A DNA stretch of 64,000 bases from an uncultured Candidatus Saccharibacteria bacterium (GTDB lineage Bacteria; Patescibacteriota; Minisyncoccia; Phycocordibacterales; UBA9973). Below, piece by piece: positions 12,840-32,787 of this stretch. The notes below the pieces were generated by a model. It was not told the origin of the DNA, ran no database searches, and saw nothing but the letters and a program-made list of their open reading frames with translations. Both the position numbers and the translations under genes were made by a program. Numbering within the stretch: position 1 is the stretch's first letter; every line of letters starts with the position of its first letter. The stretch spans positions 193-64,192 of the forward strand of contig CAYXTA010000001.1 of the NCBI GenBank assembly GCA_964468315.1, written 5' to 3'.

Positions 12840-12884
12840 TTGTTTTGGTAGGTATACGTAAGTTTATGTAAAAAGTTAATTAAT

Positions 12885-12957
12885 GCCGAGGTAGCTCAGT
12901 TGGTAGAGCGCTCCCCTGAAGAGGGAGATGTCACCAGTTCAAATCTGGTCCTCGGCA
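12885..12957 (+). tRNA. tRNA-Phe (anticodon GAA)
   Basis: Perfect cloverleaf: gccgagg...cctcggc, D-loop agttggta, anticodon loop ctGAAga, T-arm accag ttcaaat ctggt. Confidence 0.85.
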
Positions 12958-14498
12958 CAACCACAGAAGTCGGCGAAAATGGTCGGGTCAAAAGCGAATT
13001 TCTGCGAAATTCGCAAGGAGTCGGAAGTCCGTCCGGTCTTTATAAATAAGGTGAAATCCCATAAATCCCCCCAGTGTATGGAAACCATTTTGTCCTTAAT
13101 CACGGGGTTCGAGCCGACTTTTTGAAAAAACTTCTTCCATTCGATGTAATCGGAAGTTTTTTCTAAATTGACGGCTTCTTTTAAGGACAAAATGAAATTC
13201 CGCAAAGGTTCGACCCAATTATTTCTCTGATGTCCAAAATGACTCAAACTTTCCTCAAGCTTGATTTTTTGACGCATCAAAATATCTTTTCGTTCGAGAT
13301 ATATACCTTTCTCAACCTCGCCATCGAGATATATCGAGACGAGTCGATCAAGCTTGGTTTTTGTTTCGGAAAGTTTGGTCTTTACATTTTGGATATCAAT
13401 TCCGTTTGCCGAAATTGACTCACTTTCCCAAACAGTAATCTGCTTTTCCATTTCTTCAATTTCGGACAACGGAAACGACACTGATTGAAGCAGGGTACGC
13501 AATTGTGTGGCGAGTGCATTTTCCTGCAAATACGGCTGACTACACTTTCCTTTCTTTTTACTGCAACGATAATAAATATACCGAGTTCCAGAATCATTCG
13601 TTGCATATTGAGCCGTAATTGCTCCTGTGCATTCGCCACACTTCGCAAGACCACGAAAATCAAATGGATGCGCAATTTTTGATTTTCGTGGTCTTTGACG
13701 ATTTGCGTACACTTTCTGCACTGCTTCGAACAGTGTCGGAGAAATAATTGGCTCAAAGGTTCCATCGTACCACTCGCCACGATGGTTTATAAAACCGAGA
13801 TATGCGCGATTGGTAAGCATTTTCGCGATGGACCAAGTGCATAGTGGCGTTCCTTTTTTCTGTACAACTCCGTGATCCGCCAAAAAATCTGCCAAGGTTT
13901 CAAAAGTGTGAGTCTTGTTGGAATACTCTTCAAACGCTCGCTTAATAACTTTGCCATACACGGGATGTGGTTCGATATTCTTTGTTTTATAATTATTCAC
14001 ATAGCCCATCGGAGCGAGCGTTAGCCATTCACCACGACGGATTTTTTGGCGGATTCCACGCTTAACATTTTCAACTAAGTTGTCAGAAAAATATTTGGAT
14101 TGCCCGAACGCCACTTGCAACATAAATTTGCCTTGCGGAGTTGGCTCAAACCAAAACTGCGGAAAGCGTAAAGAAGCAATTCTGTTGATGTCTACAAGGT
14201 AAATTATTTTACCTCCATCAACAGAATTCCGAGCAAGACGGTCAGGGTGCCATGCCAAAATGCCAAGCGGTTCACTTGAGCTTTCAATATATTCAATCAT
14301 TTTGGCAAAACCGTCTCGCCCGGGCTTCTTTGCGCTTTTTGATTCTGTAAATACTTTTACAATATCAATGCGTTCTCTGCTCGCAAATTCTTTCAACTCA
14401 AAAAGCTGTGCCTCGATGGACATAACTTGCTTATCGTCCTCTTCAGTAGATTTGCGAGCATAGAGAACACATTTAGTTTTGGTTTGAGTTGTTTCCAT
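12939..14498 (-). CDS. large serine recombinase (resolvase/invertase N-domain + recombinase + zinc ribbon)
   Basis: METTQTKTKCVLYARKSTEEDD (catalytic Ser context), recombinase domain, and Cys cluster CGECTGA...YYRCSKKKGKC. Stop codon TGA is complementary to 12939-12941 inside the tRNA-Phe T-loop. Start taken at METT; an alternative in-repeat start lies at 14597. Confidence 0.85.
   Translation of the reverse strand: METTQTKTKCVLYARKSTEEDDKQVMSIEAQLFELKEFASRERIDIVKVFTESKSAKKPGRDGFAKMIEYIESSSEPLGILAWHPDRLARNSVDGGKIIYLVDINRIASLRFPQFWFEPTPQGKFMLQVAFGQSKYFSDNLVENVKRGIRQKIRRGEWLTLAPMGYVNNYKTKNIEPHPVYGKVIKRAFEEYSNKTHTFETLADFLADHGVVQKKGTPLCTWSIAKMLTNRAYLGFINHRGEWYDGTFEPIISPTLFEAVQKVYANRQRPRKSKIAHPFDFRGLAKCGECTGAITAQYATNDSGTRYIYYRCSKKKGKCSQPYLQENALATQLRTLLQSVSFPLSEIEEMEKQITVWESESISANGIDIQNVKTKLSETKTKLDRLVSIYLDGEVEKGIYLERKDILMRQKIKLEESLSHFGHQRNNWVEPLRNFILSLKEAVNLEKTSDYIEWKKFFQKVGSNPVIKDKMVSIHWGDLWDFTLFIKTGRTSDSLRISQKFAFDPTIFADFCGCAEDQI
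12955..13081. repeat. inverted repeat A, left copy (127 bp)
   Basis: Reverse complement of 14492..14618 with one mismatch. Overlaps the last 3 nt of tRNA-Phe. Confidence 0.9.
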
Positions 14499-14618
14499 AC
14501 ACTGGGGGAATTTATGGGATTTCACCTTATTTATAAAGACCGGACGGACTTCCGACTCCTTGCGAATTTCGCAGAAATTCGCTTTTGACCCGACCATTTT
14601 CGCCGACTTCTGTGGTTG
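14492..14618. repeat. inverted repeat A, right copy (127 bp)
   Basis: Matches 12955..13081 in inverted orientation. Contains the recombinase ATG and upstream region. Confidence 0.9.
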
Positions 14619-14882
14619 TGCGCTAATTATACGCTTTGCGCGAACTTTTTTCGAGAAGCAAAGTGATTAAGCGCATCCGTTGCGCTGAAGCGCCACCACG
14701 CCAAGCGTGGTGCTTTTCCTAAAAGGAAAAGACGGAAGCGCTTAGACCCAATGCGGACTCGGTTTTGCGAAAGCTATATTCTCTGGGATACGATTTTGCA
14801 AAACCTCGGCATATTCTTTTTTGAAATTCGGCAGGGTTTCGGTTTGGTTTGGCACGCAGGAGGGTCTGGGAGGAATGCGTGC
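14619..14882. repeat. inverted repeat B, left copy (about 264 bp, GC-rich)
   Basis: Reverse complement of 30958..31215 with a few mismatches. Begins gtgcgctaattatacg immediately after repeat A. Confidence 0.85.
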
Positions 14883-14920
14883 ACCTTTAATTTTGTACCC
14901 TGTTATATTTTAACATACCA

Positions 14921-14936
14921 TTGCGGTATACTGCAA
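14921..14936. promoter_or_regulatory. imperfect palindrome upstream of the HTH gene (candidate controller operator)
   Basis: ttgcggtatactgcaa is a near-palindrome centred on gtatac, about 20 bp upstream of the 14956 ATG. Confidence 0.3.
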
Positions 14937-14955
14937 CAAGGAGTAAACTCAATGT

Positions 14956-15162
14956 ATGAAAAGTGAGTCAAAAAAACTGGGAGGAAATCTAAAAACCATC
15001 CGAACTACAAAGGCAATATCACAAGGTGATATAGCGCGATCACTCGACGTTAGTCGAGGGTTTATTAGTAATATTGAAAATGGCAAAACCAACCCAACAC
15101 TTGAAACAATCGCAAGATTGGCAAAAGCTGTTGGTGTATCAACTAACGAGCTTTTGAAATAA
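14956..15162 (+). CDS. XRE-family HTH regulator (restriction-modification controller-like C protein)
   Basis: 68 aa. ISQGDIARSLDVSRGFISNIENGKTNPTLETIARLAKAVGVSTNELL is the canonical HTH_3/XRE fold. Lies immediately upstream of the restriction/helicase operon. Confidence 0.75.
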   Translation: MKSESKKLGGNLKTIRTTKAISQGDIARSLDVSRGFISNIENGKTNPTLETIARLAKAVGVSTNELLK

Positions 15163-15166
15163 TTGA

Positions 15167-18100
15167 ATGATAAAGAATTTCAACAATAAGACAGAAAAGG
15201 TTGGTGATGACCTAAAAAATACTATTAAAAAAGGCAGTAAACTTGATATTGCTGCTGCTATTTTTTCTATGTATGGATTTGAGAGCTTAAAAACTGAATT
15301 AAAAAATATTGATGAACTTCGTTTTATTTTCACTGATCCTACTTTTATTGAACTTGATAAAAGTAAGCGTCAAGAAAGAATGTTTGAAATTCTTGCAAAC
15401 AATAGAAAAAAAGCCATAGGAGGGTCTGATTTTGAAATAAATTTAAAGAACGAACTTAGAGGTAAATCTATTGCGAAAGAGTGCAAAAAATGGATTGAAG
15501 ATAAGGTAAAATTTAAAACAAATAGAGCTGGTGGATTCATCCAGCCTCAGTTTATTGTTCGTAATGAAGATGAATCAATTTTGTATAGTGGTATAAATGA
15601 ATTTAGTAGTTCTGGTGTGGGGTATGAAAAAGATAACTCTATTTTAAATATGGTAATGAAGTCTGATGATTATCAGACAACGCATGAGTATATTAAAAAT
15701 TTTGAAGAAGTATGGAATGACGAAAAATCATTAAAAGATGTTACTGATGAAGTCCTTGGTTATATTTCAAATATATATAAAGAGAATTCTCCTGAATTTA
15801 TTTATTACATAACACTCTATAATATTTTTGATGAATTTTTGGAAGATATAACAGAAGATGAATTGGCTAATGAAAAAACAGGGTTTAAAGAATCTGCTGT
15901 TTGGCATATGTTATACGATTTTCAAAAAGATGCTGTTTTGGGAGTTATTAATAAGCTTGAAAGACACAATGGTTGTATCTTGGCAGATAGTGTTGGATTA
16001 GGTAAGACTTTTTCTGCACTCGGTGTCATTAAATACTATCAAGAGAGAAATAAGAGTATTCTCGTTCTTTGTCCTAAAAAGCTCAGCGACAACTGGCAGA
16101 CTTTTCTTTCAAATTACGAAGACAATCAATTATATAAAGATAGATTTAATTACGATGTTTTATATCATACAGACCTTTCTCGCGATAAAGGGTTTTCAAA
16201 TGGTAAAGATCTTTCTCGTGTAAACTGGGGCAATTATGATTTGGTTGTAATCGACGAATCACATAACTTCAGAAATAATGATCCAAGAAAAGATAAGATA
16301 ACTCGATATCAGAAACTTTTAAATAATGTAATGAAAGCAGGAGTAAAAACAAAGGTCCTAATGCTCTCTGCTACTCCTGTAAATAATAAATTTACTGATT
16401 TAAAGAATCAAATAGCTTTGGCTTATGAGGGACATACAGATGTAGTTGATGATAAAATGGATATTACTAAATCAATTAATTCTATTTTAAATCAAGCACA
16501 AAGGACTTTTAATGACTGGTTAAAATTACCAGTAGAAGAACGTACTGGAACAAATCTTTTGTCTGAGTTGAATAAAAACTTCGACTTTTTTAAACTACTA
16601 GATAATATTACTATCTCAAGAAGTAGAAAACATATCATGAAGTATTATGATACTTCTGCTATTGGTAAATTCCCAAATAGATTAAAGCCTATTACTTATC
16701 GTTCGGATATTACTGATATAGAGGGATTTATGAAGGTAGATGAATTGTATGAACAATTGACCAGATTAAATATGGCCATGTATTCTCCTTTTGATTATAT
16801 TCTTCAAGATAAAATACAATTCTATAATGAAACTTATGATACTCAAATTTCAGGAAATTCGAGTTTAAAACAGTCTACTCGTGAAAAAAGTTTACAGAAA
16901 CTAGTGAAGATAAATTTTCTTAAAAGACTAGAGAGTTCTGTGGATTCATTTCGTATTACTTTGGAAAAATTTGTTAATGCAGTTGATGCAACTGTTAAAA
17001 GCATTGATGAGTTTGAAAAAACAGGAGTTAATAGTATTACAGAAGCTACCCAAATAAATGATTCTGGTTTTGATGAAGATGAGGAGAATGAAGATTGGCT
17101 TGATGATGAATTTAGTTTCGGTGGAAAAGTAAAAATAAACCTTGCGGATATGAATACTGCTGGTTGGAAGGAAGACTTACAATTTGACTATAAAATAGCA
17201 AAAGCAATTCTTGATGAAATGAAGCGTGTTACTCCAGAGCATGATTCTAAACTAAAAGATCTTCGAGATTTTATTACACATAAGATAAAAAATAATATAA
17301 ACCCAGATAATAGTAAAGTGGTAGTTTTTACAGCTTTTGCTGATACAGCAAATTATCTTTATGAAAATATATCTACTTGGGCTAAGGATACTCATGCACT
17401 AGAATCTGCTCGTATTACTGGTGGTGGAACCAATAAATGTACCCTCGATATAGATAGTCAATTTAATAACTTATTAATACATTTTTCACCACGATCAAAA
17501 GGTCGTCATGAAAAGTATAAGGACCACAAAGAAATCGATATTTTAATTGCTACTGATTGTATTTCAGAAGGTCAGAACCTTCAAGATTGTGATACTCTCG
17601 TAAACTACGATATTCACTGGAATCCTGTGCGTATAATCCAACGCTTTGGGCGTATTGACCGTATTGGATCTATTAATACTGATATACAGCTCGTAAACTT
17701 CTGGCCACAGATATCACTTGATGATTATATTAATCTTAAAAACCGCGTAGAGGGTCGTATGCTCCTTGTAGACATGACAGCAACTGGAGATGACAATGTG
17801 CTTACAAATCAATCTTCGGATATAGATTTTAGAAAACAACAATTAGAAAGACTTCAAAATGAAGTTGTGGATATTGAAGAAATGGATTCTGGTATTTCTA
17901 TTACAGATTTAGGACTAAACGACTTTCGTATGGATTTGGTGAATTACATTAAGTCTGGCCAAAATTTAGAAGGTTTAGCAAATGGTATGCATGCGGTATG
18001 CCCACAAGCACCAGAAAAAGGAGTAGAAAAAGGAGTTATCTTTGTATTAAAAAATATCAACAATGAAGTAAATATTGATAATACAAATCAACTTCATCCG

Positions 18101-18427
18101 TTTTATTTAGTATATATAAATGAGCAAGGGCAAGTTATTTCAAATCATCTTAATGTAAAAAATACTTTAGATATCTTACGTTCTATCGCTAAAGGTAAAG
18201 ACGAGCCTATTCCTGTAGTTTATGAATTATTTAACGACGAGACAGACGATGGTAAGAAGATGGATAAATATTCCAATCTTTTGAGTGAGTCTATACAATC
18301 AATCATCCATGTAAAAGATGAATCAGATGTAGATAGTTTATTTAGTGTTGGTGGTACTACTGCACTTATGAATAGTATAAAAGGTCTGGAAGATTTTGAA
18401 TTAATTAGCTTTATGGTTATTAAATAG
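15167..18427 (+). CDS. SNF2-family helicase/ATPase (SNF2_N + helicase C) with uncharacterised N- and C-terminal domains
   Basis: ILADSVGLGKTFSALGVI (motif I), VIDESHNFRN (motif II DEXH), LSATPVNN, and C-terminal ILIATDCISEGQNLQDC...HWNPVRIIQRFGRIDRIGS (motifs IV-VI). Confidence 0.85.
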   Translation: MIKNFNNKTEKVGDDLKNTIKKGSKLDIAAAIFSMYGFESLKTELKNIDELRFIFTDPTFIELDKSKRQERMFEILANNRKKAIGGSDFEINLKNELRGKSIAKECKKWIEDKVKFKTNRAGGFIQPQFIVRNEDESILYSGINEFSSSGVGYEKDNSILNMVMKSDDYQTTHEYIKNFEEVWNDEKSLKDVTDEVLGYISNIYKENSPEFIYYITLYNIFDEFLEDITEDELANEKTGFKESAVWHMLYDFQKDAVLGVINKLERHNGCILADSVGLGKTFSALGVIKYYQERNKSILVLCPKKLSDNWQTFLSNYEDNQLYKDRFNYDVLYHTDLSRDKGFSNGKDLSRVNWGNYDLVVIDESHNFRNNDPRKDKITRYQKLLNNVMKAGVKTKVLMLSATPVNNKFTDLKNQIALAYEGHTDVVDDKMDITKSINSILNQAQRTFNDWLKLPVEERTGTNLLSELNKNFDFFKLLDNITISRSRKHIMKYYDTSAIGKFPNRLKPITYRSDITDIEGFMKVDELYEQLTRLNMAMYSPFDYILQDKIQFYNETYDTQISGNSSLKQSTREKSLQKLVKINFLKRLESSVDSFRITLEKFVNAVDATVKSIDEFEKTGVNSITEATQINDSGFDEDEENEDWLDDEFSFGGKVKINLADMNTAGWKEDLQFDYKIAKAILDEMKRVTPEHDSKLKDLRDFITHKIKNNINPDNSKVVVFTAFADTANYLYENISTWAKDTHALESARITGGGTNKCTLDIDSQFNNLLIHFSPRSKGRHEKYKDHKEIDILIATDCISEGQNLQDCDTLVNYDIHWNPVRIIQRFGRIDRIGSINTDIQLVNFWPQISLDDYINLKNRVEGRMLLVDMTATGDDNVLTNQSSDIDFRKQQLERLQNEVVDIEEMDSGISITDLGLNDFRMDLVNYIKSGQNLEGLANGMHAVCPQAPEKGVEKGVIFVLKNINNEVNIDNTNQLHPFYLVYINEQGQVISNHLNVKNTLDILRSIAKGKDEPIPVVYELFNDETDDGKKMDKYSNLLSESIQSIIHVKDESDVDSLFSVGGTTALMNSIKGLEDFELISFMVIK

Positions 18428-18428
18428 C

Positions 18429-19046
18429 ATGAACTTCAATTTACCCCAGCAGGCATATTTACACAGATTTATACCAAAGAATAAATTCTCTGATAAAACT
18501 GAAGTTAATACAAAGCTAAAAAAAGAATTTACAGATCAAATACAGAAAATAATTTGGGAATATAAATTAGCTCCTAGTACTGTTGGTATATCTGCCACCG
18601 AAAAAGTTGAAGAAATTCAAATATTTGAAATTCAATTAAAGGAAAAAATAATACCTAAAAATGTATTAAAAATTATAGACAAAGCTATCCCGTATCCTAT
18701 TTTATATGTTTTTAAATACGAAGGACATTATGCTTATGGTATTACCTTAAAAGAAGATAACTCTCAGAGATATTACTTCTCAGAATGGGATGAGAAAAAG
18801 GAATTTAATTTCTTTGGTATCGACCTGGAACACGTGTACCAAGGCTTAGTTACCAGTTTTATTGGTATTCGCCAGAAGGGTCAAGATTTTGCTACAATAG
18901 TAAATACAGATAAACAAATAGAATCCTTAGAAAAAGAGATCAATGCTCTGAAAAACAAGGTCAAAAATGAAAAGCAATTCAACAGAAAAGTAGAGTTAAA
19001 TAAGGTATTAGCAGAAAAAAAGAAGTCGCTCAAGTCTATATTATAA
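18429..19046 (+). CDS. small uncharacterised protein, DUF4391-like (tentative)
   Basis: 205 aa with C-terminal coiled coil. AIPYPILYVFKYEG resembles, from memory, the conserved YPI motif of the DUF4391 family, which co-occurs with SNF2 helicases and methyltransferases. Not verifiable here. Confidence 0.4.
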   Translation: MNFNLPQQAYLHRFIPKNKFSDKTEVNTKLKKEFTDQIQKIIWEYKLAPSTVGISATEKVEEIQIFEIQLKEKIIPKNVLKIIDKAIPYPILYVFKYEGHYAYGITLKEDNSQRYYFSEWDEKKEFNFFGIDLEHVYQGLVTSFIGIRQKGQDFATIVNTDKQIESLEKEINALKNKVKNEKQFNRKVELNKVLAEKKKSLKSIL

Positions 19047-19067
19047 ATTATCAATAACATCATTATT

Positions 19068-21005
19068 ATGAAAAAACTAGCAATGCAAACACCAGACCTT
19101 ACAGAAGGTAATATTACAAAGATAAAAGAACTATTTCCTAATGTAATTACTGAAAAGGAAGGTCCTGATGGTGTTATTGAAAAGGCCGTAGACTTTGAGC
19201 TTCTGAAGCAGATACTTTCAAAAGAGCTAGTGGAAGATGATAATGAGCGTTATCGCCTCGACTGGCCTGGTAAAAAAGCTTCACTTTTGAAAGCGAATAC
19301 CCCTATTACTAGCACACTTCGTCCAGACAGAGAAAGTAGTGTTAATTTTGATACAACTGAAAATGTGTTCATAGAAGGCGATAACTTTGAAGTTTTAAAA
19401 GTCCTCCAGGAGTCATATTTAGGAAAGATAAAAATGTGCTACATTGACCCCCCATACAATACGGGAACTGCAATGATTTATAGTAATGATTTCAGTAAAA
19501 CAGAAGAAGAATATGATGAAGAAATGGGTGCGGTTGATGAAGAAGGTATCAAAATGTTCAAGAATACTGACAGTAACGGTCGCTTTCATAGTGATTGGCT
19601 TAGTATGATGTATGAAAGGATTGTTGTAGCTAGAGATTTGTTAACAAATGATGGTTTTATGGCATTGGCTATTGATCATAATGAGTTACATAATTTAATA
19701 TCAATTTGTGATGAAATTTTTGGTGAAAATAATAGAGTGGGAGTAATCACTGTAGTACATAAACCAGAAGGAAGAAATCAAGAGAAGTTTTTTGGAACAA
19801 GTAATGAATTTATGCTTGTTTATTCAAAAAATAAAGATGAAGCAAATTTTAATGATGTTGTTTTAGATGATTCCCTTGCTGAGTTATTTGACTCAAACGA
19901 TGAAAGAGGAAAGTTTAAATTAAAGAATTTTATTAGATTGTCGGATGGTAAATATAGTTTGAGAGTTAATAAACCACATTTTTATTATCCTGTTTATGTT
20001 AATGGTGACTTTACAGAAATTTCACTAAGTCAAAAGGATGGATTTATCGCAGTCTATCCAATAACTCAGGCTGGGCAAGAGAGAACATGGAAAACTACAC
20101 CAGAAACATTAGTAGATAGATTTAATAAAGGTGATTTAATATTTACAAAAAATAAGGATAATGAGATAGAGCTTTTTGAGAAACTTAGAGAAAATCAAGT
20201 TATTAAAACACACTGGATTGATAAAAAATATCACGGTTATCATTTTGGTACAAAAATCATTGATTCACTATTGGGAGATAAAACATTTGATTTTCCAAAG
20301 TCATTATTTTTAATGAAGGATGTTTTAAAAATGATGGCATCAGGTGATGATATTATCTTAGATTTTTTTGCTGGATCAGGTACAACAGCACATGCTACTA
20401 TTCAGTTAAATGTAGAAGATGGCGAAAATAGAAAATTTATTATGGTTCAAATTCCAGAAAAAACAGAGAGTGATTCTGATGCATACAAAGCGGGTTATAA
20501 AACTATTTCAGAAATTAGTATGGAGCGTATACGTAGGGCAGGCAAAAAGATTGTAGAGGAAAATGCAGAAAAATTAAAAGAAAGAGAAACACCGTTAGAT
20601 ATTGGATTCCGTGTGTATAAGACTGATACAACAAACATGAAAGATGTTTACTATCATCCGTCTGCCGTCAACCAGGATGATTTGTTTAATCACGTTAGTA
20701 ATATAAAAAATGACAGAACACCAGAGGATTTGCTCACTCAGGTAATTCTTAACCTTGGGCTAACCTTAGACCTCCCAATAGAAAAGAAAAATATAAAAGG
20801 TAATGATGTTTATTTTGTCGCAGGTAATGCACTCGTTGCTTGTTTTGATGACAAGATTGATTTTGGGATCGTGGAAGAAATAGCAAAGTCTGAGCCGTTA
20901 AAAGTCGTATTCAAAGATGCAAGCTTTAAGGAAGAACAAGATAGAACAAATGTCGAAACAAAATTCAAGAGGTTGTCTCCGGAAACAATAATCACTGTAT
21001 TGTAA
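19068..21005 (+). CDS. Type III-like DNA methyltransferase (Mod; beta-class N6-adenine/N4-cytosine methyltransferase)
   Basis: CYIDPPYNTG (motif IV DPPY) lies N-terminal to ILDFFAGSGTTAHA (motif I FxGxG). This order is the beta-class permutation typical of Type III Mod. Confidence 0.85.
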   Translation: MKKLAMQTPDLTEGNITKIKELFPNVITEKEGPDGVIEKAVDFELLKQILSKELVEDDNERYRLDWPGKKASLLKANTPITSTLRPDRESSVNFDTTENVFIEGDNFEVLKVLQESYLGKIKMCYIDPPYNTGTAMIYSNDFSKTEEEYDEEMGAVDEEGIKMFKNTDSNGRFHSDWLSMMYERIVVARDLLTNDGFMALAIDHNELHNLISICDEIFGENNRVGVITVVHKPEGRNQEKFFGTSNEFMLVYSKNKDEANFNDVVLDDSLAELFDSNDERGKFKLKNFIRLSDGKYSLRVNKPHFYYPVYVNGDFTEISLSQKDGFIAVYPITQAGQERTWKTTPETLVDRFNKGDLIFTKNKDNEIELFEKLRENQVIKTHWIDKKYHGYHFGTKIIDSLLGDKTFDFPKSLFLMKDVLKMMASGDDIILDFFAGSGTTAHATIQLNVEDGENRKFIMVQIPEKTESDSDAYKAGYKTISEISMERIRRAGKKIVEENAEKLKERETPLDIGFRVYKTDTTNMKDVYYHPSAVNQDDLFNHVSNIKNDRTPEDLLTQVILNLGLTLDLPIEKKNIKGNDVYFVAGNALVACFDDKIDFGIVEEIAKSEPLKVVFKDASFKEEQDRTNVETKFKRLSPETIITVL

Positions 21006-21012
21006 TATTTAT

Positions 21013-24000: not shown

Positions 24001-24045
24001 GTTGTAGATAGTTACGAGAGTTTAATGGAAAAAGTAATGAGGTAA
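21013..24045 (+). CDS. Type III restriction enzyme Res subunit (helicase-nuclease)
   Basis: METGTGKTYV (Walker A), ILIIDEPQRF (DEAH-like), FIFSHSALREGWDNPNIFQIC (helicase motif VI region), and a long C-terminal domain. About 1000 aa, as for Res. Confidence 0.85.
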   Translation: MKLQFKQQQYQADATNAVVRVFDGQEKGVRKEVVGRVKANDLFQKTMVEEIFSNKKLDIDEKQILTNVQELQKEQGIKVGKKLEGLNFTVEMETGTGKTYVYTKTMFELNKEYGWNKFIIMVPSVAIREGVNKSMEITADHFQEIYGKKIRFFIYDTKNKTNLTNIKSFANTSNIEVIIMNYQAFGRTSKDALKMFQKLDEMQSEKPIDVIKRARPILIIDEPQRFGQTAQSMLPEFNPLFITRYSATHKEDYNKIYRLDAIDAYNQKLVKKIRVKGIEVKGNSGTNSYLFLDRIHVSSNAYPTATVQMEIETKQSGGIKKTLKKIKEGDNLFAVSGELAQYEGYLVKEINARTNTVSFTNGISISVGQVHGDVDELHIRTIQIREAIASHIEKERELYTKGIKVLTLFFIDEVAKYRAYDDKGKQIRSEYEEIFEYEYKQAISQRDLFNDEYYKYLDSFDVSKVHNGYFSVDNKGRAVNSKETRGQDGSDDVNAYDLIMKNKEQLLSFKEPTRFIFSHSALREGWDNPNIFQICTLKHSESTISKRQEIGRGLRIAVNDQGERMDHSVLENEFFDINTLTVIASESYDTFSKQLQGEILDTLSDRPSSLEVGVFKDRILKNKDGETFVFDDKHTMDLIFMFKEKGYVDSDYKITEKLIEAIDSDTVEIPVVLVNFKTELVNMIQKVHATNTFKSSEDDRANNVKVSILKPNENFFKQEFKDLWNKIKIKTVYDVSFDGKELIEKSIKSIDATLDVNKATVRVTIGEQKDNITEELLKSGESISKTSNQIEKTESILGSIKYDIIAEVAKGANITRKTSGEILGKMNKIKFALFKVNPEHFIREVVRHINEQKAATLINNITYHKLDSVYEDDIFTVNNFQGALDNNVLKVNKHIYEYVKTDSKIERKFAEEMDLEGSKVLIYAKLPNGFKIPTPIGNYNPDWAIVFDSKDIKYIYFIAETKGSMSTLQLKGSELQKINYARKHFEALSCADLKYDVVDSYESLMEKVMR

Positions 24046-24059
24046 AAATTAAATAAATT

Positions 24060-25208
24060 ATGGTAGGAAAAAATAAAAAACTAAATAAAATTTTACCAGA
24101 TAATCTTAAAAAAGAAGAGGAACGTCCTAAATGGACAGATATGAATGATGTTCTTAAGGTCTATAAGTATTACAGTAAACAGTATAGTTGGATGCATCTT
24201 GTTGTTGCTCAGAATAAATTTTCAAAGAAAAAATATCTTCGTCTAAAAAAATATTTCAATTGGTTTGCCATTCCTGATGCTGGTTATTTGGCAGTACTTC
24301 AGAATATTTTAAAAAAGGGAGCTCAAGAGCTTGAGTGGAAATATAAAAATGATTTAGAAGTAAAACTTGAAGAAGTAACAGATAAAAAAGAAAAAAGGGA
24401 TATATTAAAATCAAATAAATCGAGTGGAATTCCAGAAGAAATACTTGAATTTATACAGAAATTTCCTGACTTTACAAAAAAACTTATTTCACTTGATTTA
24501 GAAAACAAGAAATTAGAAGAAATACTTGAAGTTATGAATATGACTGCTGATGCTATTTCTGTTTCTGGTGATCGTTTTCGAATAGCATTTCAGGAGTTGC
24601 TTGGAAAGATTTCTAAAGAAGAACCTAAAAGTATGATGGAATTATCTGATTTAATGGAAAAATATAATTTGAATCAACTTACTTCACTTTTAAATATAGT
24701 AAAATCACGACTACAAACCATTGAAACATTTGAGCAAATGATTCACAACGATAAAACTTATGAAATCAGAGGCGATAAATCTGTACATCGTGTATTAGAA
24801 AATAGTATGTGGCTAGTCGATGATAAATACTGGATTGTGTCTTCGAATAAATCTCTTCGTGATTTTATTGGTGTAGGTATGGAAAAAGAGGATAAAAAAT
24901 ATAAAAGCAAAAGACCTGATTTTGTTTGTGTAGATCATGATAATAAAATAATAATATTGGAAATTAAAAGACCTTCAGTCGAATTAAAAAAAGAAGAAAT
25001 AGATCAAGCTGTTTTATATTTACGAATGATAAAAAAATATCACTCACAGAAAAAACCAGTCGAAGTCTACTTAATAGGTAATACAATTTCAGAAGAAGCG
25101 AGAGATATAGCAGAACTAATGCCAACAATAAAATTACAAACATACCAGGAATTTTTAGAAAAATGTAGAGCCAGATATAAGCAATATTTAAATATAGTAG
25201 AAGTTTAA
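24060..25208 (+). CDS. hypothetical protein with C-terminal PD-(D/E)xK nuclease-like core
   Basis: RPDFVCVDHDNKIIILEIKRP gives PD-x13-ExK. N-terminal 250 aa unassigned. Confidence 0.4.
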   Translation: MVGKNKKLNKILPDNLKKEEERPKWTDMNDVLKVYKYYSKQYSWMHLVVAQNKFSKKKYLRLKKYFNWFAIPDAGYLAVLQNILKKGAQELEWKYKNDLEVKLEEVTDKKEKRDILKSNKSSGIPEEILEFIQKFPDFTKKLISLDLENKKLEEILEVMNMTADAISVSGDRFRIAFQELLGKISKEEPKSMMELSDLMEKYNLNQLTSLLNIVKSRLQTIETFEQMIHNDKTYEIRGDKSVHRVLENSMWLVDDKYWIVSSNKSLRDFIGVGMEKEDKKYKSKRPDFVCVDHDNKIIILEIKRPSVELKKEEIDQAVLYLRMIKKYHSQKKPVEVYLIGNTISEEARDIAELMPTIKLQTYQEFLEKCRARYKQYLNIVEV

Positions 25209-25212
25209 TTTT

Positions 25213-26718
25213 ATGAAATTAATTTCTAAATCAAAATTCTTAGACTATCTAACTTGCCCTAAAGATGCATGGTTTAGAATGCATAAGCCAGAATTGAAAG
25301 AATTTGAAATTTCTTCTGGGCTACAAAACACATTTGACCAAGGTTATGAAGCTGAAGAATATGCAAAACAATTAAAAGTATTTTCTGGATTTATAGAAGT
25401 CACAGCTAAAGGAGTTGATGTAAAAAAAGAAGTTGACTCATTAATAGAGAAAAAGGTTCCAGCCATTTATCAGCCGACATTTATTGCAGATGGATTTATT
25501 ATTCGTTGCGATATGCTCGTCTGGGATTCAGAATCTTCTAAATGGGATTTGTATGAAATAAAATCATCAACAAAAAGACATGATACAGGGGCTCGAGATC
25601 ATCTGTCTGATGCAGCTTTTCAGGCAATAGTTTTGGAACGCTATGGAATCTCGGTTGGTAAAATATTTATTGTTCATCTAAATAGTGAATATATAAAAAA
25701 TGGAGAAGTAGACATTGAAAATCTTTTTGTGCTAAATGATAGCACTTCTAAGGTTACAGCAAGAAGAGTTACCGTAGCTCCAGAAATGGAAGAAGCCAAA
25801 AAGTATCTTAATCAAGAAACTGAACCAAAGAATGGTTGCGATTGCATATATCGCGGTCGTAGTAGTCATTGTGCAACAACACACATTTCATACCCTAGTA
25901 TTCCTGAGTACTCTGTTCATGATCTTTCATACATTGGAAAGAGTCCTGATAAATTGAGAAGTTTAATAGAGAAAGGGATATATCACATACATGATATTGA
26001 AGATGCTTCTAATTTGACTGACAAGCAACAAAATCAAGTAATGGTGCATAAATCAGATACTGAAATGATAGACAAGGAAGAGATTGAGAATGTTCTGAAT
26101 AGCTATACCTACCCTTTATATTTCTTTGATTATGAGACTTATGCCCCAGCTATACCTATCTATGATGGGTTTTTCCCATATCAAAGAATTCCAATTCAGT
26201 TCTCTTTACATGTTATTGATAAAAAAGGTGGAGAAGTACGCCATGTGGAATATTTACAAACTGAAAATATAGATCCGTCGGAAACCGTGGCAAAAATGTT
26301 AAGTGAGAATATAGAACCAGAAGGAACAATTCTCGCATGGAATGTTGGTTTTGAAAAAAGTGTGACTACCGAACTTGCCTTACGGTTGCCAAAGTACAAG
26401 AATGTTTTAACTAGAATATGCGACCAAATGCAAGACTTAATGGATATATTTTCCAATCAACATTATGTACATAAAGGTTTTAAAGGTAGAGTAGCCATTG
26501 AACCAGTAATGAATACACTACTTCCTGAAATGACATATGACCACTTACCTTACACAGGAGCAGATGTTGGGTATGTATGGTGGAGTGATATAGTTAATGA
26601 AGGTAAAGAACCAAAAACAAGAGATGAAAAATTACATTTACTTTTGGAGTATTGTAAACAAGATACTTTTGTTATGGTGGAAATTTTCAGGATACTTAAT
26701 GAGATTATCAAGAAGTAA
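25213..26718 (+). CDS. RecB/Cas4-like PD-(D/E)xK nuclease fused to DEDD-like exonuclease domain (DUF2779-like, tentative)
   Basis: N-terminal C15 plus CDCx8C Cys cluster. DGFIIRCDM...LYEIK (D...ExK). YFFDYETYAP resembles exonuclease motif I; compare FVDIETTGL in the DnaQ-like ORF at 54715. Confidence 0.45.
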   Translation: MKLISKSKFLDYLTCPKDAWFRMHKPELKEFEISSGLQNTFDQGYEAEEYAKQLKVFSGFIEVTAKGVDVKKEVDSLIEKKVPAIYQPTFIADGFIIRCDMLVWDSESSKWDLYEIKSSTKRHDTGARDHLSDAAFQAIVLERYGISVGKIFIVHLNSEYIKNGEVDIENLFVLNDSTSKVTARRVTVAPEMEEAKKYLNQETEPKNGCDCIYRGRSSHCATTHISYPSIPEYSVHDLSYIGKSPDKLRSLIEKGIYHIHDIEDASNLTDKQQNQVMVHKSDTEMIDKEEIENVLNSYTYPLYFFDYETYAPAIPIYDGFFPYQRIPIQFSLHVIDKKGGEVRHVEYLQTENIDPSETVAKMLSENIEPEGTILAWNVGFEKSVTTELALRLPKYKNVLTRICDQMQDLMDIFSNQHYVHKGFKGRVAIEPVMNTLLPEMTYDHLPYTGADVGYVWWSDIVNEGKEPKTRDEKLHLLLEYCKQDTFVMVEIFRILNEIIKK

Positions 26719-26719
26719 T

Positions 26720-26851
26720 ATGGACGAAGAAACATTTGAAATAGCAAAAGAAAATGATTTAAGTCTTGAGGAAGCTGAAGAACTTCGGGACTTTGCTGAC
26801 GAGAATGACATTGAAGTAGATGATGCTTTAGAAATTTGGCAAGATTTATAA
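26720..26851 (+). CDS. small acidic protein (43 aa)
   Basis: MDEETFEIAKENDLSLEEAEELRDFADENDIEVDDALEIWQDL. Track ORF 26597.. overlaps the upstream gene; ATG 26720 follows its stop. Confidence 0.3.
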   Translation: MDEETFEIAKENDLSLEEAEELRDFADENDIEVDDALEIWQDL

Positions 26852-27118
26852 AAAGATGCTATAATATAAGTGTTACAGAAGTAACACTTAGTCTATGAGT
26901 TTATATAGACCATACGAGGTTCCCTTGAATGGGTAGGTGAATTGGGAAATCTGCGAGGATCCAAATACCTTATATGACTGATTGCCAAAGGCGGTTGGGA
27001 GATTTCATTAAGATTGTCGAATCTTGATCAAAACTCTTAGTCGCTTTTTTCTTTGCCTAGTCAGCAGATCAAAGCTCTCAGGGTATTATTAAATTAAAAA
27101 TAATAATATAATAAAAAT

Positions 27119-28000
27119 ATGATATACACAAATAAAATACAAAAAGCTATAGAACTCGCAATACAAACTCACGAGATAGATGATAAACAAAAAAGGAAAG
27201 GCAAAGATATACCGTACATTACGCACCCGCTTTCTGTAGGGCTTATACTCGCTACAGCAGGGGGTACAGAGGATGTGATAGTCGCTGGTATACTCCACGA
27301 TACTATTGAAGATAGTACAGTTGAAAAGAAAATCACAAAGGAAATGATTGCCGAGCAATTTGGTGATAATGTAATGCAATTAGTCCTAAGTGTTACAGAA
27401 CAAAATAAATCCTTGTCCTGGGAAGAAAGAAAAGCCGAAGCGCTTGAGCATATAAAAACATTTTCACACGATTCACTGCTATTAAAGTCTGCAGACATAA
27501 TTTCAAATACAACAGAACTTATTTCTGATTACCAAATAGAGAGAGAAGAAACTTTTGATAGGTTCAATGCCCCAAAAGAAAGAATTTTAAAAGGTTATAC
27601 TGATTCTATAAATGCTATCTTGTATAAATGGTCAGAGAGTCCTCTTGCTGAGGATCTAAAAAATGTATTAGGAGAAATAAAAAGTATGACAGAAAGTAAA
27701 GAAGAAGTTGAATTTTATCTAAATTCAGAAGAATTAAAAGAAAGGCGTATTGTGTACGTTGCTTGTGAAGATGAAGAGAATTGTGGTTTTATTGTGGAAT
27801 TCAAATTTCCTAATTGTACTTTTTTCTTCTGTAAAGAACACAAAATGGGATTTAATATTGATTTAAATACTGTTACTGATGATGGCGTTTTGTGTAAACA
27901 GCATAATGAAATGGAGCGCTACAATGTCTTGACAGAAGATAATGTTTGCCCAGTATGCGAAAAGAATACCCTTGCAATACTTTCTGCTAGAATTAACTAA
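27119..28000 (+). CDS. HD-domain phosphohydrolase, RelA/SpoT-type (p)ppGpp hydrolase-like (SAH) with C-terminal Cys-rich zinc ribbon
   Basis: YITHPLSVGLILATAGGTEDVIVAGILHDTIED (HD motif with the His-Asp pair). C-terminal CxxC...CPVC. Confidence 0.7.
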   Translation: MIYTNKIQKAIELAIQTHEIDDKQKRKGKDIPYITHPLSVGLILATAGGTEDVIVAGILHDTIEDSTVEKKITKEMIAEQFGDNVMQLVLSVTEQNKSLSWEERKAEALEHIKTFSHDSLLLKSADIISNTTELISDYQIEREETFDRFNAPKERILKGYTDSINAILYKWSESPLAEDLKNVLGEIKSMTESKEEVEFYLNSEELKERRIVYVACEDEENCGFIVEFKFPNCTFFFCKEHKMGFNIDLNTVTDDGVLCKQHNEMERYNVLTEDNVCPVCEKNTLAILSARIN

Positions 28001-28047
28001 AAAATTAAAAATTTGGCAGGATCTATAAAAAGGTCTATGATAGGGGT

Positions 28048-28938
28048 ATGGAAGGACTAACATTTAAAGAAAAAATTATATTGGAAAAAACAAACAAATT
28101 CTTAAAAAAACACAAGCCGTCTTTTGTATTGACTGCTATTGTTATATTGAGTGTTTTAATCGGCAATGCCATCTATTTTTCTATTTGGCCGTCTGACGAT
28201 AAGACCCTTTTAAGTTCTTTGACTGATATTGAGAATGACAACTGCTCTGTAGTAGGTATTAATTTACATGGAACTTTACTAACATATATTGCACCTCATT
28301 CTGAAAGTGACCCCCTTTTTAATTATGATTCCGTAGCTAGTGAAGATATATATTTTAAAATTAAACAAGCAAATGAAGATGAAAGTATAAAAGCAATTAT
28401 ACTGGAAGTTGACTCTGGTGGAGGGTCTGGAATTGCTGGTGAAGAGGTTTCAAATATTATTAAAAATAGTGCTAAACCTGTCGTAGGATGGATAAGAAGT
28501 GTAAGTGCGTCGGCGTCGTATTTTGCTGTAAGTAGTGCTGATAGGATATTTGCCTCAAAATTTTCTGATGTTGGAGGAATAGGTGTGACCGCTTCTTATT
28601 TAAGTAATGTAAAAAAGAATCAAAAAGATGGCTTAAATTACGAGCAATTGATTGCAGGTAAATATAAAGATTCAGGAAGACCTGATAAGCCACTTACAGA
28701 AGAAGAAAAGAAATTATTTTTGAGAGATATAAATATTGGGTATGAGAACTTTATGAAAGCTGTTTCCGCGAATCGTAATATACCAATTGAAAAAGTTAGA
28801 GAAATTGCTGATGGTTCAACAGTGATGGGAGAGCAAGCAAAGGAACTTGGTTTGATTGACGAGATTGGTGGAATTAATGAGGTTGAAAAGTATCTTGAGG
28901 AAACAATCGGAGAAAAGCCAGAGATTTGTTGGAAGTAA
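28048..28938 (+). CDS. sppA: signal peptide peptidase SppA-like serine protease
   Basis: N-terminal TM. IKAIILEVDSGGGS...ASYFAVSSADRIFA resembles the SppA/ClpP-fold catalytic region. Confidence 0.7.
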   Translation: MEGLTFKEKIILEKTNKFLKKHKPSFVLTAIVILSVLIGNAIYFSIWPSDDKTLLSSLTDIENDNCSVVGINLHGTLLTYIAPHSESDPLFNYDSVASEDIYFKIKQANEDESIKAIILEVDSGGGSGIAGEEVSNIIKNSAKPVVGWIRSVSASASYFAVSSADRIFASKFSDVGGIGVTASYLSNVKKNQKDGLNYEQLIAGKYKDSGRPDKPLTEEEKKLFLRDINIGYENFMKAVSANRNIPIEKVREIADGSTVMGEQAKELGLIDEIGGINEVEKYLEETIGEKPEICWK

Positions 28939-28960
28939 TTTAATAATATAATATTTAACT

Positions 28961-29413
28961 ATGAAAAATAACCGTAACAGCGTATTAACAGGAGTAACTG
29001 GCGAATATTATGTAGCCGCAGAACTTTCTCGTATGGGATATATTGCTTCTATCACTCTCAGAAATACTAAAGGGGTAGATATTCTGTGTTCAAACTCTGA
29101 CGCGACGAAAACTGTTAGTATACAAGTAAAGACTGGATCAGAAGTTAAGAGCACTTGGATTCTAAGTGAAAAGTCAGAAAAATATTATGCACAAAAACTT
29201 TTTTATGTGTTCGTAACTTTGAGTAAAAATTTACACCCAGAGTATTCTATCGTACCAAGTAAAATCGTTGCTGATTTCATAACTAAAAATCACAAAAATT
29301 ACCTAGGTTCTCTTAGTAAAAAGGGCAAAGAGCATAAAGATAGCTCTATGAGAAAGTTTATTGATTTGGAGAAAAAGTATTTAAATAGGTGGGACTTATT
29401 AGGTCTTAACTAG
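28961..29413 (+). CDS. hypothetical protein, restriction-endonuclease-like fold (tentative)
   Basis: EYYVAAELSRMGY...GVDILC...IQVKT shows an E / D / QxK spacing reminiscent of PD-(D/E)xK. Confidence 0.35.
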   Translation: MKNNRNSVLTGVTGEYYVAAELSRMGYIASITLRNTKGVDILCSNSDATKTVSIQVKTGSEVKSTWILSEKSEKYYAQKLFYVFVTLSKNLHPEYSIVPSKIVADFITKNHKNYLGSLSKKGKEHKDSSMRKFIDLEKKYLNRWDLLGLN

Positions 29414-29500
29414 GTAGGTATGGGTATTATACCACAATTTAATCTAAAATGCAAGTATTTTTTACCATACAAATTAAGCTCTTTTTGATATAATCCATAT

Positions 29501-30073
29501 ATGGCAGATGAAATAGACACTAATACCCAAACGCCTCAAACTGAGCCTCTAGAGGTGCCAAAATTGGCACCAGAAGCAACTTCTGAAGCTCAAACGGCTC
29601 AAATACCATCAAGTGAGCCGTTGGCTACTGAACCCGAGCTAATTGCAACACCAGAAGTAACGTCTGAACCTTTGCAAACTTCTGGCGAGGTAAAAGCCGA
29701 GCCAGAGAAAGAAGAAACGGAAATCCCTGAATCAAAACACGAAGATCAAACTTCTTCACAATCTGAGACTCAATCCCAACCCACTACTCCACCACAGGAG
29801 GCAACGCCTCCTGTGGTAATAATCCCTCCTGTAAATAAAATTCGTGAACTTCTTGCGAAAGCCAGAAATGCAATTCAATTTAGAAAAAGAAAGAAACTAG
29901 AAAAAATCATGAACATGTTCACGAAGCGAACAAATGTAACTAACGACGAAGTTGAGAAACTTTTGCATGTCTCTGATGCCACTGCAACAAGATATCTCAC
30001 TATCCTCAAGAAAGAAAACAAGATTAAACAATCTGGAAAAACAGGGAAAGGAGTTTCGTATTCTAAGATTTAA
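29501..30073 (+). CDS. Pro/Thr/Glu-rich low-complexity protein with C-terminal winged-helix
   Basis: N-terminal 110 aa acidic PT-rich. C-terminal VEKLLHVSDATATRYLTILKKENKIKQSGKTGKGVSY is HTH-like. Confidence 0.4.
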   Translation: MADEIDTNTQTPQTEPLEVPKLAPEATSEAQTAQIPSSEPLATEPELIATPEVTSEPLQTSGEVKAEPEKEETEIPESKHEDQTSSQSETQSQPTTPPQEATPPVVIIPPVNKIRELLAKARNAIQFRKRKKLEKIMNMFTKRTNVTNDEVEKLLHVSDATATRYLTILKKENKIKQSGKTGKGVSYSKI

Positions 30074-30284
30074 CCAAATTTTTTTGAATCAAAAAATGCA
30101 ACCTTAACGCTGTGGAAAAATAGTAAAGATATGGATTTATGATAACCTTGTTGTATTCATATTGAGTTATCTTTAACTTTACGCTATCAACTTGATAATA
30201 ATACTGACCATTGTCTTCAATAGCTTCTGCAAAATATTTAAAATTATTTCCTAACAAACAAATCTTTAGTGTAACTACTTTCAT
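30063..30284 (-). CDS. hypothetical small protein
   Basis: 73-aa ORF with no supporting features. Confidence 0.2.
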   Translation of the reverse strand: MKVVTLKICLLGNNFKYFAEAIEDNGQYYYQVDSVKLKITQYEYNKVIINPYLYYFSTALRLHFLIQKNLVKS

Positions 30285-30489
30285 AAAATAAAAAATTCCT
30301 TAAATAATAAGGAAAGGTTTTTTGCGTGGACTAGACACAAACTTATCTTTCCCATATGGGTTGGATTTAGCACCTTGCATTTGTAGGTTGCTGGATGGAT
30401 TACTGAGCCAATTCTCTAACCACCACTCTTGATATAAACTATTAAGTTGTAATTTAATTCTATCAATAAAAAAGAATAAGAGCAAATTT

Positions 30490-31215
30490 TATAGGGAGCA
30501 GAAGTTGCCTACGCGCACGGGTGGGTGGAGTGTGTGCGTACTCGCACACACTCGGGGCAAGTATTTGCATTTGCACCTCGGGCATTTCCGCTATGTGCGT
30601 CCATGGCTGACGGATGAGCGCCGACCCTATATTGCAATACTAAAGGTAAATAGCGAAGCGACACACTAACATCTAATCTGATAAAGCGTAGAGTGGGGGT
30701 GGCGAGGGTGGACCGCTGTATTCAGCGACACCCGACCCGGGGAGAGGAAACTTCCTCTCCCCGAGAAGCGCGGGCAATCTACTAAACGGCTCATCCTCTG
30801 GTATTTGAGCCGTTTAACTATCTGGTTTGCCCGCTCATAGGCATGTAGGCGTGAGTAGCCATAGCGGAAATGCCCGAGGCGGATGCCGAGGGTGATACCT
30901 ACCGACAGACAGGACAACACATCGAGAAAGGAACGAGGTACAATATTGAATTTGTATTTTTGAGTTATGCCCGCATTCCTCCCAGACCCTCCTGCGTGCC
31001 AAACCAAACCGAAACCCCGCCGAATTTCAAAAAAGAATATGCCGAGGTTTTGCGAAATCGTATCCCAGAGAATATAGCTTTCGCAAAACCGAGTCCGCAT
31101 TGGGTCTAAGCGCTTCCGTCTTTTCCTTTTAGGAAAAGCACCACGCTTGGCGTGGTGGCGCTTCAGCGCAACGGATGCGCTTAATCACTTTGCTTCTCGA
31201 AAAAAGTTCGCGCAA
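30490..31215 (-). ncRNA. GC-rich structured element (candidate large ncRNA or ORF-less mobile RNA element); contains inverted repeat B right copy
   Basis: About 725 nt and clearly GC-richer than its surroundings. Many hairpins (for example ggggagaggaa actt cctctcccc, and gagtgtgtgcg tact cgcacacactc). A 20-nt long-range pairing joins 30574-30593 and 30863-30882. ORFs in it (30666..31100 minus, 30870..31109 plus) have foreign composition. Strand uncertain. Confidence 0.35.
30958..31215. repeat. inverted repeat B, right copy
   Basis: Reverse complement of 14619..14882. Ends ...taattagcgcacaa at the island/chromosome junction. Confidence 0.85.
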
Positions 31216-31270
31216 AGCGTATAATTAGCGCACAAATTTATATATAATAACTTAAAAAATTAAGTACTTT

Positions 31271-32286: not shown

Positions 32287-32294
32287 TATTGATA

Positions 32295-32765: not shown

Positions 32766-32787
32766 AATATTTTTAGTTGATTAATTT

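Follow-up and report, generated by a model that had tools for sequence, protein, structure and literature searches.

How is the block of about 18 kb beside tRNA-Phe in an uncultured Candidatus Saccharibacteria bacterium put together, and how did it come to be inserted there? The window, the whole stretch of 64,000 nt analyzed here (contig CAYXTA010000001.1, assembly GCA_964468315.1), contains at this place a gene for a large serine recombinase (LSR), and a first-pass annotation had proposed an integrative element that might be rearranged, inverted or immobilised. The analysis described below indicates that positions 12955-31235 are almost certainly an intact LSR integrative island at tRNA-Phe, with a family-wide architecture. 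As an explanation of the whole, we favor on balance an island in which an internal, inverted copy of the element attachment site (attP) would hold the recombinase gene and its promoter together once the element has integrated.

Limits of the island and its recombinase

The target gene, tRNA-Phe (GAA), is intact at 12885 to 12957/8 on the plus strand (ARAGORN; Rfam tRNA, 73.1 bits). The exact limits of the island beside it are 12955/12961 and 31229/31235 (18.3 kb), and the chromosome restarts at 31236; the first-pass annotation had it resume at 31216, with the right edge 20 nt too far left.

The empty site was found through the identical host protein of 31271-32272 in three contigs, L001-L003 (SRR25018341-43, i.e. 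samples other than that of the window; L numbers designate contigs and loci throughout). In all three, tRNA-Phe is joined straight to 31236 via a single GCACAA: the contigs read ...ggtcctcgGCACAAatttatatataataac, corresponding to 12954, core and 31236, and the empty junction reads ...tctggtcctcgGCACAAatttatatataataac. They are 100% identical to the window at 12913-12960 and 31230-35047. The uninserted site that had been foreseen thus exists, and it differs from the predicted join only by the 20-nt slip. It lacks the recombinase module and the cargo module at once, and there is no target duplication beyond the core.

In more distant strains (L004-L006, 93-97% identical) both the island and the 333-aa host gene just right of it (31271-32272, no Pfam match on record) are missing, and an HSP20 gene follows directly after tRNA-Phe. 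As these contigs lack both, the 333-aa gene represents a separate strain difference beside the same tRNA. In L004 (10262-10310) a duplicate of the beginning of tRNA-Phe, its first 12 nt and the "at" before them, is found ~40 nt upstream of the gene itself.

Crossover took place at the last acceptor base and the discriminator of tRNA-Phe, leaving the body of the tRNA untouched. The idea of an integrative element at tRNA-Phe therefore stands in so far as an island is located there and is carried by an LSR, but no tRNA 3' end is "reconstituted" in the tyrosine-integrase sense. The left (attL) and right (attR) ends and the empty chromosomal site (attB) have a clean core of 6 bp in common, and the cores of 16 related elements measure 3-8 bp. 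The suspicion raised by the missing second copy of the tRNA 3' segment is thus not supported, and the element has been neither rearranged nor immobilised. Serine integrases require just a few shared bases, so the absence of a longer tRNA repeat is no sign of rearrangement.

The recombinase (12939..14498, minus strand, 519 aa) was confirmed as annotated. Its TGA codon (12939-12941) lies on the complement of the T-loop, and the last five codons plus the stop overlap the tRNA gene. The assignment to the large serine recombinases was borne out by the Pfam domains PF00239 (Resolvase, 4.2e-23, residues 11-158), PF07508 (Recombinase, 1.6e-12, residues 182-266) and PF13408 (Zn_ribbon_recom, Cys4, 3.7e-9, residues 281-329), with the catalytic motif Y13-A-R-K-S17 and DRLAR present in the translation; residues ~340-440 look helical by eye. 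Among solved structures, the SPbeta integrase YokA is the closest (9dxh, E=8.9e-7, residues 8-427). Database protein P0001 is 100% identical to the recombinase, and relatives number thousands, the best 120 all being at least 56% identical. The named relatives and loci are from metagenome-assembled genomes (MAGs) of Patescibacteria (CPR bacteria), except for a few differently labelled bins.

An upstream start at 14597, which would give 552 aa, was rejected. In the class of elements with a 140-nt repeat, a stop codon precedes the recombinase ATG (L020), for which reason the 519-aa start was kept; an exact database look-up with the 552-aa product found no record.

The same island occurs in GCA_020049755.1 on separate contigs, one with the recombinase module (L009, 99.8% identical to window 12883-14742) and one with the cargo (L092, 94.5% identical overall to window 14845-22096, 88% over part). 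The difference between the two values suggests that the modules may have different histories. The elevated GC content of the recombinase and repeat zones, already remarked on in the first-pass annotation, was confirmed: GC is 0.41-0.44 between 13 and 15 kb, 0.415 between 30 and 31 kb and ~0.32 elsewhere.

Repeat pairs and the middle junction

The island contains two pairs of inverted repeats, a 131-nt pair named A and A' and a 268-nt pair named B and B'. With a slash standing for the 6-bp core GCACAA, the order is tRNA / A - recombinase (reverse strand) - A' / B - helix-turn-helix (HTH) regulator and cargo - B' / chromosome. The attL core (12955..12960, plus strand, tRNA positions ~71-76) has the tRNA on its left and repeat A on its right. 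Repeat A, the tRNA-side arm (12955..13085), shows one mismatch to A', at 13067, in a base-by-base comparison; its minus strand codes for about the last 45 recombinase codons, and its plus strand is the sequence of the recombinase 5' leader, including ATGGAAAC. The inverted copy A' (14491..14621) is that leader itself and includes the start codon (14496-14498). The internal core, TTGTGC (14616..14621, GCACAA on the minus strand), is common to both pairs, which overlap by these six bases. Repeat B, the recombinase-side arm (14616..14883, GC 0.50), has two mismatches to its inverted copy B', the far arm (30968..31235), at whose end the attR core GCACAA is found (31230..31235, plus strand). The outer ~47 nt of repeat B form a conserved P arm with a GTTCGCGC motif and a TATAAT box.

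Repeats of such length (131 and 268 nt) and 99% identity could hardly have arisen by chance. The cargo repeats of about 260 bp described earlier are real, but the far arm does not end at 31215; similarly, the shared hexamer exists at both ends, but on the right it sits at 31230-31235, and 31210-31215 reads gcgcaa. The 131-nt pair around the recombinase and the third, inverted GCACAA at 14616-14621 had been overlooked.

The two ends of the island, A and B', are unrelated sequences, and the repeats pair end-to-middle. This arrangement creates three junctions: tRNA-core-A (attL), B'-core-A on the minus strand, and B'-core-chromosome (attR). The middle junction, B'-core-A, is probably an intact, inverted second copy of the predicted attP, together with a promoter-like site. 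All three junctions could be read in 17 elements, and in 17/17 the attL, internal and attR sites were found with a common core of 3-8 bp. The cores of L044, L045, L058 and L088 (TCA, TCACCA, CCACA and CACCAA) are without a palindromic dinucleotide; the polarity is therefore fixed, and the middle site would be a true inverted attP and not a symmetric hybrid. A palindromic model, in which each module forms its own circle and a symmetric site is crossed at the GC dinucleotide, fits the window and was refuted by these cores of its relatives.

Just two positions recur in every core of the 17 elements, the last acceptor base and the discriminator (usually CA). The T-loop sequence GTTCRA of the tRNA begins 18 nt before the core, and in the B' arm a conserved GTTCG(n)GC begins ~24 nt before it; most elements have the B' motif 6 nt further out than the tRNA motif, the others 5 or 4 nt. 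The attP half-sites of LSRs carry the motif for the zinc domain ~5 bp further out than the attB half-sites. By this rule, the outward shift of the motif favors B' as the P-type arm and the tRNA as the B-type arm. The recombinase may read the universal T-loop GTTCRA on the tRNA, and a GTTCG mimic lying 4-6 nt further out on B'; recognition of so universal a sequence would explain the use of 24 different tRNAs by close relatives.

The P arm also contains a promoter-like sequence, TCGAAA-17-TATAAT (14626..14654, minus strand), with 10/12 consensus positions, which is aimed across the core into A' and the recombinase gene. Its counterpart in B' (31197-31225, plus strand; likewise 10/12) is aimed outward at the host gene at 31271. 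Nearly all of the 17 elements have a TAnnAT box 4-5 nt ahead of the core, with conserved outer positions and variable middle ones, as expected for a -10 element. If the promoter is real, transcripts would begin about at the crossover, A' would be the 5' leader of the recombinase, and the P arm would overlap its own promoter. The possibility that B' holds a copy of the promoter of the HTH gene, driving a structured RNA, was also considered and dropped: the HTH promoter is likely to lie in 14884-14955, outside the repeat, and none was found in B.

The layout recurs throughout the recombinase family; the cargo repeats are no peculiarity of the island in the window but one half of this conserved double-repeat arrangement. 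A census of GTDB species genomes yielded 81 recombinase loci, 57 of them with enough flank to be scored. Repeats bracketing the recombinase were present in 52/57, with a median arm identity of 99.1% and lengths of 59-149 nt (modes 114, 131 and 140). The outer end of the repeat overlaps the 3' end of a tRNA by 4-7 nt in 46/55 loci. The targets comprise 24 tRNA isoacceptors, and a second pair (86-372 nt) surrounds the cargo wherever the contig reaches far enough upstream. The closest illustrations are an NCBI MAG locus (L010) and a JGI metagenome locus (L011), whose recombinases are ~80% identical to that of the window: both have the same double-repeat layout, with a 131-nt pair, 1405 nt between its arms, and an abutting 288- or 180-nt pair around a small cargo, the outer repeat end overlapping tRNA-Leu or tRNA-Gly. 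The layout is kept down to 42-45% recombinase identity (L079 and L088; the bracketing repeat alone in L071 and L076). Recombinases that are 80% identical occur in genomes of 33-51% GC.

Searches outside these loci added little. A metagenome scan with the window's own core and A sequence gave 0 matches; with a degenerate A-arm pattern it gave 33, most without a nearby recombinase and taken as chance, and the few real ones incomplete. A scan of IMG/VR revealed no relatives with the query used. No published account of such a layout in an LSR element, or of the present Patescibacteria family, was found in a literature search of incomplete coverage.

The orientation of both segments is nearly uniform. 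The recombinase 3' end faces the tRNA in 68/71 loci and is flipped in three (L020, L049 and L028), where the tRNA is immediately upstream and co-directional; every complete element shares a single orientation. Among the 19 elements with both pairs, the HTH gene or an open reading frame (ORF) of 67-73 aa is recombinase-proximal and divergent in 15, and at the far end in none (0/19). This uniformity of the two segments indicates that they do not invert freely.

The arms are 98-100% alike within most elements and 76-79% alike between elements whose recombinase genes are ~81% identical. This greater likeness within than between elements points to concerted evolution. Decay below 95% was seen in 13/59 arm pairs; in L013 and L025 the A arms are 100% identical and the B arms 93-95%. 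No G-T strand bias is seen among the mismatches (41 vs 39 for A, 15 vs 25 for B); transversions occur almost as often as transitions, and indels are frequent. Two models of arm maintenance were discarded. Renewal of the arms at each insertion followed by clock-like decay, as in long terminal repeats, is contradicted by the A and B values of L013 and L025. Selection for pairing, either in a panhandle of the recombinase mRNA (5' leader with 3' end) or in a DNA stem, does not agree with the lack of G-T bias and the many transversions and indels. The arms would rather be kept near-identical by copying (gene conversion) than by selection for pairing.

Hairpins were observed in both repeats. In repeat A, about 35-60 nt from the core, the sequence of a hairpin changes and its pairing is kept (GCGAATTTC/GAAATTCGC, GCGATTTTG/CAAAATCGC, CGAGTTTTC/GAAAACTCG); it is located at 12990-13015 in the window, ~9905-9935 in L020, ~9915-9945 in L028 and ~4245-4275 in L049. 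The inner part of repeat B contains a hairpin block at ~14750-14831, recognized by its conservation between elements (hairpin D1 of L010), with a similar conserved hairpin at ~14760-14815 in the window and 5388-5432 in L010.

In L041, L051, L054, L074 and L116, two recombinase modules, or a module and a recombinase remnant, stand in tandem at one tRNA, and in L074 the "chromosome" side of attR resembles the A arm of another element; together these loci suggest serial insertion into an occupied site. In L028 (9798-11622) two different, convergent tRNA-Leu genes (caa and gag) have a recombinase module between their 3' ends, the arms of which are 93.6% alike. Recombination of the internal attP with a second tRNA, inverting part of the chromosome, would be expected to leave the pattern of this single case.

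Explanations of the duplicated site

What could a second, inverted attP be for? The excised form of the island would be a circle in which two identical, inverted attP regions of ~405 bp separate the recombinase segment from the cargo segment. Integration via one copy would give the observed order, and integration via the other would invert both segments together, so that the tRNA promoter would stand immediately before the recombinase and A would serve as the leader. Such a tRNA-driven orientation may be unstable or harmful, and thus be lost; since both segments flip together and independent flips are rare, this loss would explain the bias in both. With a single attP, integration would sever the recombinase gene from its promoter. 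The internal copy would keep promoter and gene joined and would lay recombinase-binding DNA over the promoter, which would then probably be self-limited, and the far copy would fire outward into the host genes displaced from the tRNA. This functional rationale for the duplicated attP is offered tentatively.

Several points weigh against the promoter-retaining island. The call of the promoter is a match to consensus only, in a region without an excess of such matches over shuffled sequences, and in distant relatives such as L079 the repeat stops ~190 nt before the start codon. The half-site on the chromosome side is not conserved, and the A-arm motif gTAGaAACwT has no clear offset. Two identical attP copies should integrate equally in both ways, so that the bias needs an additional assumption of counter-selection; the linkage of promoter and gene may also be achieved without duplication, by placing attP elsewhere, and the rationale may be one made after the fact. 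The metagenome and viral scans were uninformative, and neither an excised circle nor an alternative isomer nor evidence at the level of reads was obtained; junction sequence alone cannot reveal a circle, because the attP sequence is already inside the element. One contig, L093 (Logan ERR4405441, 1-1761), has the 3' part of the recombinase and the A arm joined directly to B and the HTH gene, i.e. a flipped segment; it could be a real isomer, or an error in the de Bruijn path across the 131-nt repeat. No recombination directionality factor turned up, although no dedicated search was made, and small ORFs of unknown function are present.

The duplicated region might instead have no function at all, having arisen once in an ancestor (e.g. 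through a mis-resolved dimer) and having been kept since by gene conversion. We consider this unlikely. The neutral look of the arm mismatches, without strand bias and with many transversions and indels, would fit such a relic, as would the decay of 13/59 pairs below 95% and the fact that no function has been demonstrated. However, the layout persists over recombinase identities ranging from 97% to 42-45%, and in 52/57 loci, while the sequence and length of the repeats vary (59-149 and 86-372 nt), and a useless 0.4-0.8 kb would be expected to be lost often from small elements, whose cargo is often ~2 kb, in streamlined genomes.

At the opposite extreme, the duplicated, inverted attP-plus-promoter could be an obligatory part of tRNA-end cassettes throughout the Patescibacteria. 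It might allow entering single-stranded DNA to fold up into a double-stranded attachment site with promoter, the recombinase being produced and put to use ahead of second-strand synthesis, or it might be a ratchet of orientation and expression; this stronger proposal is unlikely.

An inversion switch, by which the recombinase flips its own gene and/or the cargo in the manner of phase variation, appears quite unlikely, even though the geometry allows inversion of both segments and flipped recombinase segments occur in L020, L049 and perhaps L093. The count for the recombinase segment is 68 loci against 3, and no cargo module was seen in the opposite orientation. Since the two arms are identical for 268 nt, a flip of the cargo would leave its immediate surroundings as they were. 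The enzyme, moreover, is an LSR of 519 aa and not a small invertase of the Hin/Gin type.

It is very improbable that the repeats serve a single-stranded form of the element, taken up for example by competence, which would fold so that the stem supplies a double-stranded attP and promoter and the loop the template of the recombinase. Analogues are the folded attP of the CTX phage and the single-strand promoters of conjugative plasmids. In favor of the idea, the two attP regions (~405 nt) complement each other exactly and, by derivation, the plus strand of the window puts the template strand in the loop; integration, replication and resolution would yield the observed orientation, and the backbone is rich in conserved hairpins. 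But serine recombinases cut both strands, which would leave a broken chromosome capped by a hairpin and demand an extra attL x attR repair step, and the arms lack a G-T bias on either strand. To our knowledge, no single-stranded form is known for these organisms, which also counts against such folding.

Two adjacent transposons with terminal inverted repeats (TIRs), one a recombinase-only insertion sequence with 131-nt ends and the other a cargo transposon with 268-nt ends, are scarcely credible: each module is indeed bounded by its own inverted repeats, but the six bases 14616-14621 belong to both modules, the polarity of the core with respect to the arms is constant, both modules are missing at once from the empty site, which has no target duplication beyond the core, and the modules are found together wherever contigs reach far enough upstream. 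An assembly artefact, i.e. a chimera or collapsed variants of a simple element, is excluded for practical purposes: repeats longer than the assembly k-mer invite mis-joins and many related contigs end at repeats, but the arms differ by one and two bases, each inner junction needs its own reads, and the layout recurs in over 50 contigs of unrelated projects and assemblers, one of which (L009 of GCA_020049755.1) holds the very same element.

Cargo, comparable systems and significance

The cargo of the window (16.1 kb) is the largest among the elements examined; the others carry 1.7-7.7 kb of unrelated content, such as an SF1 helicase with an MTES_1575 nuclease, a solute symporter, an ART-PolyVal protein, a Dam methylase and unknowns. 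The first cargo gene, divergent from the recombinase, encodes an XRE-type HTH regulator (14956..15162, plus strand, as are the genes that follow up to 30073; Pfam HTH_3, 8e-15). It is followed by an HKD/SNF2 helicase (15167-18427; PADLOC C3a139, HKD+Snf2, 1.9e-133), a DUF4391 protein (18429-19046; Pfam, 3.8e-46), a type III Mod methylase (19068-21005; PADLOC MTase_III, 2.4e-204) and a type III Res protein (21013-24045; PADLOC REase_III, 2.3e-290). As predicted from their sequences, Mod and Res with the SNF2 helicase and DUF4391 form a type III restriction-modification module in one operon. Further on are a 382-aa protein with weak PD-(D/E)xK/HSDR_N-like matches below curated cut-offs (24060-25208), a DUF2779/Cas4-like protein (25213-26718), an HD_4 domain protein (27119-28000; Pfam HD_4, 2.5e-16), an SppA/S49 peptidase (28048-28938; Pfam Peptidase_S49, 1.7e-34) and ORFs of 150 aa (28961-29413) and 190 aa (29501-30073). 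The Pfam and PADLOC results thus uphold the cargo identities given before, namely defense-type genes, a (p)ppGpp-hydrolase-like protein and SppA.

On the minus strand, an S-adenosylmethionine (SAM)-I riboswitch (30340-30438; Rfam RF00162, 46.6 bits against a gathering score of 44.4) is followed downstream by a 73-aa ORF (30063-30284). The riboswitch, with a terminator-like hairpin ahead of this ORF, lies inside the island near the SAM-dependent methylase system.

Adjoining the far repeat arm is a GC-rich, structured region of ~380 nt, here called the G region (30555..30930, minus strand), with a 26-bp closing stem and several hairpins (fold z = -8.6 against shuffled sequences). By nhmmer it is kept in five other elements, a subset of the family (L011 7127-7508, L013 3820-4290, L014 2-418, L058 1946-2381 and L010 5530-6103, the last being the same contig as L015). 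Ten pairs show compensatory changes, and the G-U pairs fit the minus strand. A permissive Rfam scan of both repeat regions and the G region returned only tRNA, the SAM riboswitch and chance microRNA matches. The G region may be an undescribed RNA tied to this element family, without an Rfam family.

Which features of the island are new? An LSR island in itself is ordinary. The elements of phiC31, Bxb1, A118 and the SPbeta prophages, and other LSR islands, have the same domain architecture, a short core at attL, attR and attB, precise insertion, an attP motif further out than in attB, and the recombinase gene beside the attachment site. Unlike them, the island contains a second complete, inverted attP, set within the repeats around the recombinase (131 nt) and the cargo (268 nt), and its family targets the extreme 3' end of many tRNAs and was found here only in Patescibacteria MAGs. 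What appears to be new is therefore the conserved internal inverted attP, the double-repeat design and the tRNA-end targeting.

The tRNA islands of tyrosine integrases (Islander-type islands and tycheposons) likewise occupy the 3' side of tRNA genes, carry variable, defense-rich cargo and accrete in tandem, as do L041, L051, L054 and L074. The present island differs in its serine recombinase and in having no displaced tRNA fragment or direct repeat of 15-50 bp, only 3-8 bp. Insertion sequences and TIR transposons have inverted repeats at the ends of the whole element and a target-site duplication, neither of which is found here.

In geometry, the nearest counterparts are the yeast 2-micron plasmid and the class E genome of herpes simplex virus (HSV), where two unique segments are parted by long inverted repeats that hold the recombination or junction site. 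The order core-A...A'-core'-B...B'-core mirrors a-b...b'-a'-c'...c-a of HSV, in geometry only, as enzymes and hosts are unrelated; moreover, 2-micron and HSV genomes are mixtures of isomers in roughly equal amounts, whereas the island family has one dominant orientation. The Hin, Gin, Cin and Pin systems share a serine recombinase with inverted repeat sites. They use, however, small invertases encoded outside the segment, sites of 26-34 bp, an enhancer and a switch in expression, whereas the LSR lies inside its own repeat pair and a flip leaves the local gene context unchanged.

For the single locus L028, with its recombinase module between two convergent tRNA-Leu genes, a parallel is offered by the integrase of the mobile element pTN3 in Thermococcales, which is proposed to drive chromosome inversions between tRNA genes (PMC5495485). 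The pTN3 system differs in having a tyrosine integrase and in being archaeal.

The double-repeat layout is also the reason why contigs of these genomes often break beside tRNA genes.

Patescibacteria have tiny genomes and few recognised mobile elements. The family looks like a common chassis of broad host range that moves defense and other genes between distant Patescibacteria lineages. The recognition of the T-loop, mirrored in an arm of the element, suggests how one recombinase family uses dozens of tRNA genes, which is relevant to the choice and engineering of serine integrases. The internal inverted attP, together with the biased orientation, poses a testable puzzle on how integration, expression and stability are coupled. 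If an obligatory attP-plus-promoter proved true, it would constitute a mode of serine-recombinase mobility without described precedent, in bacteria thought to depend on DNA uptake.

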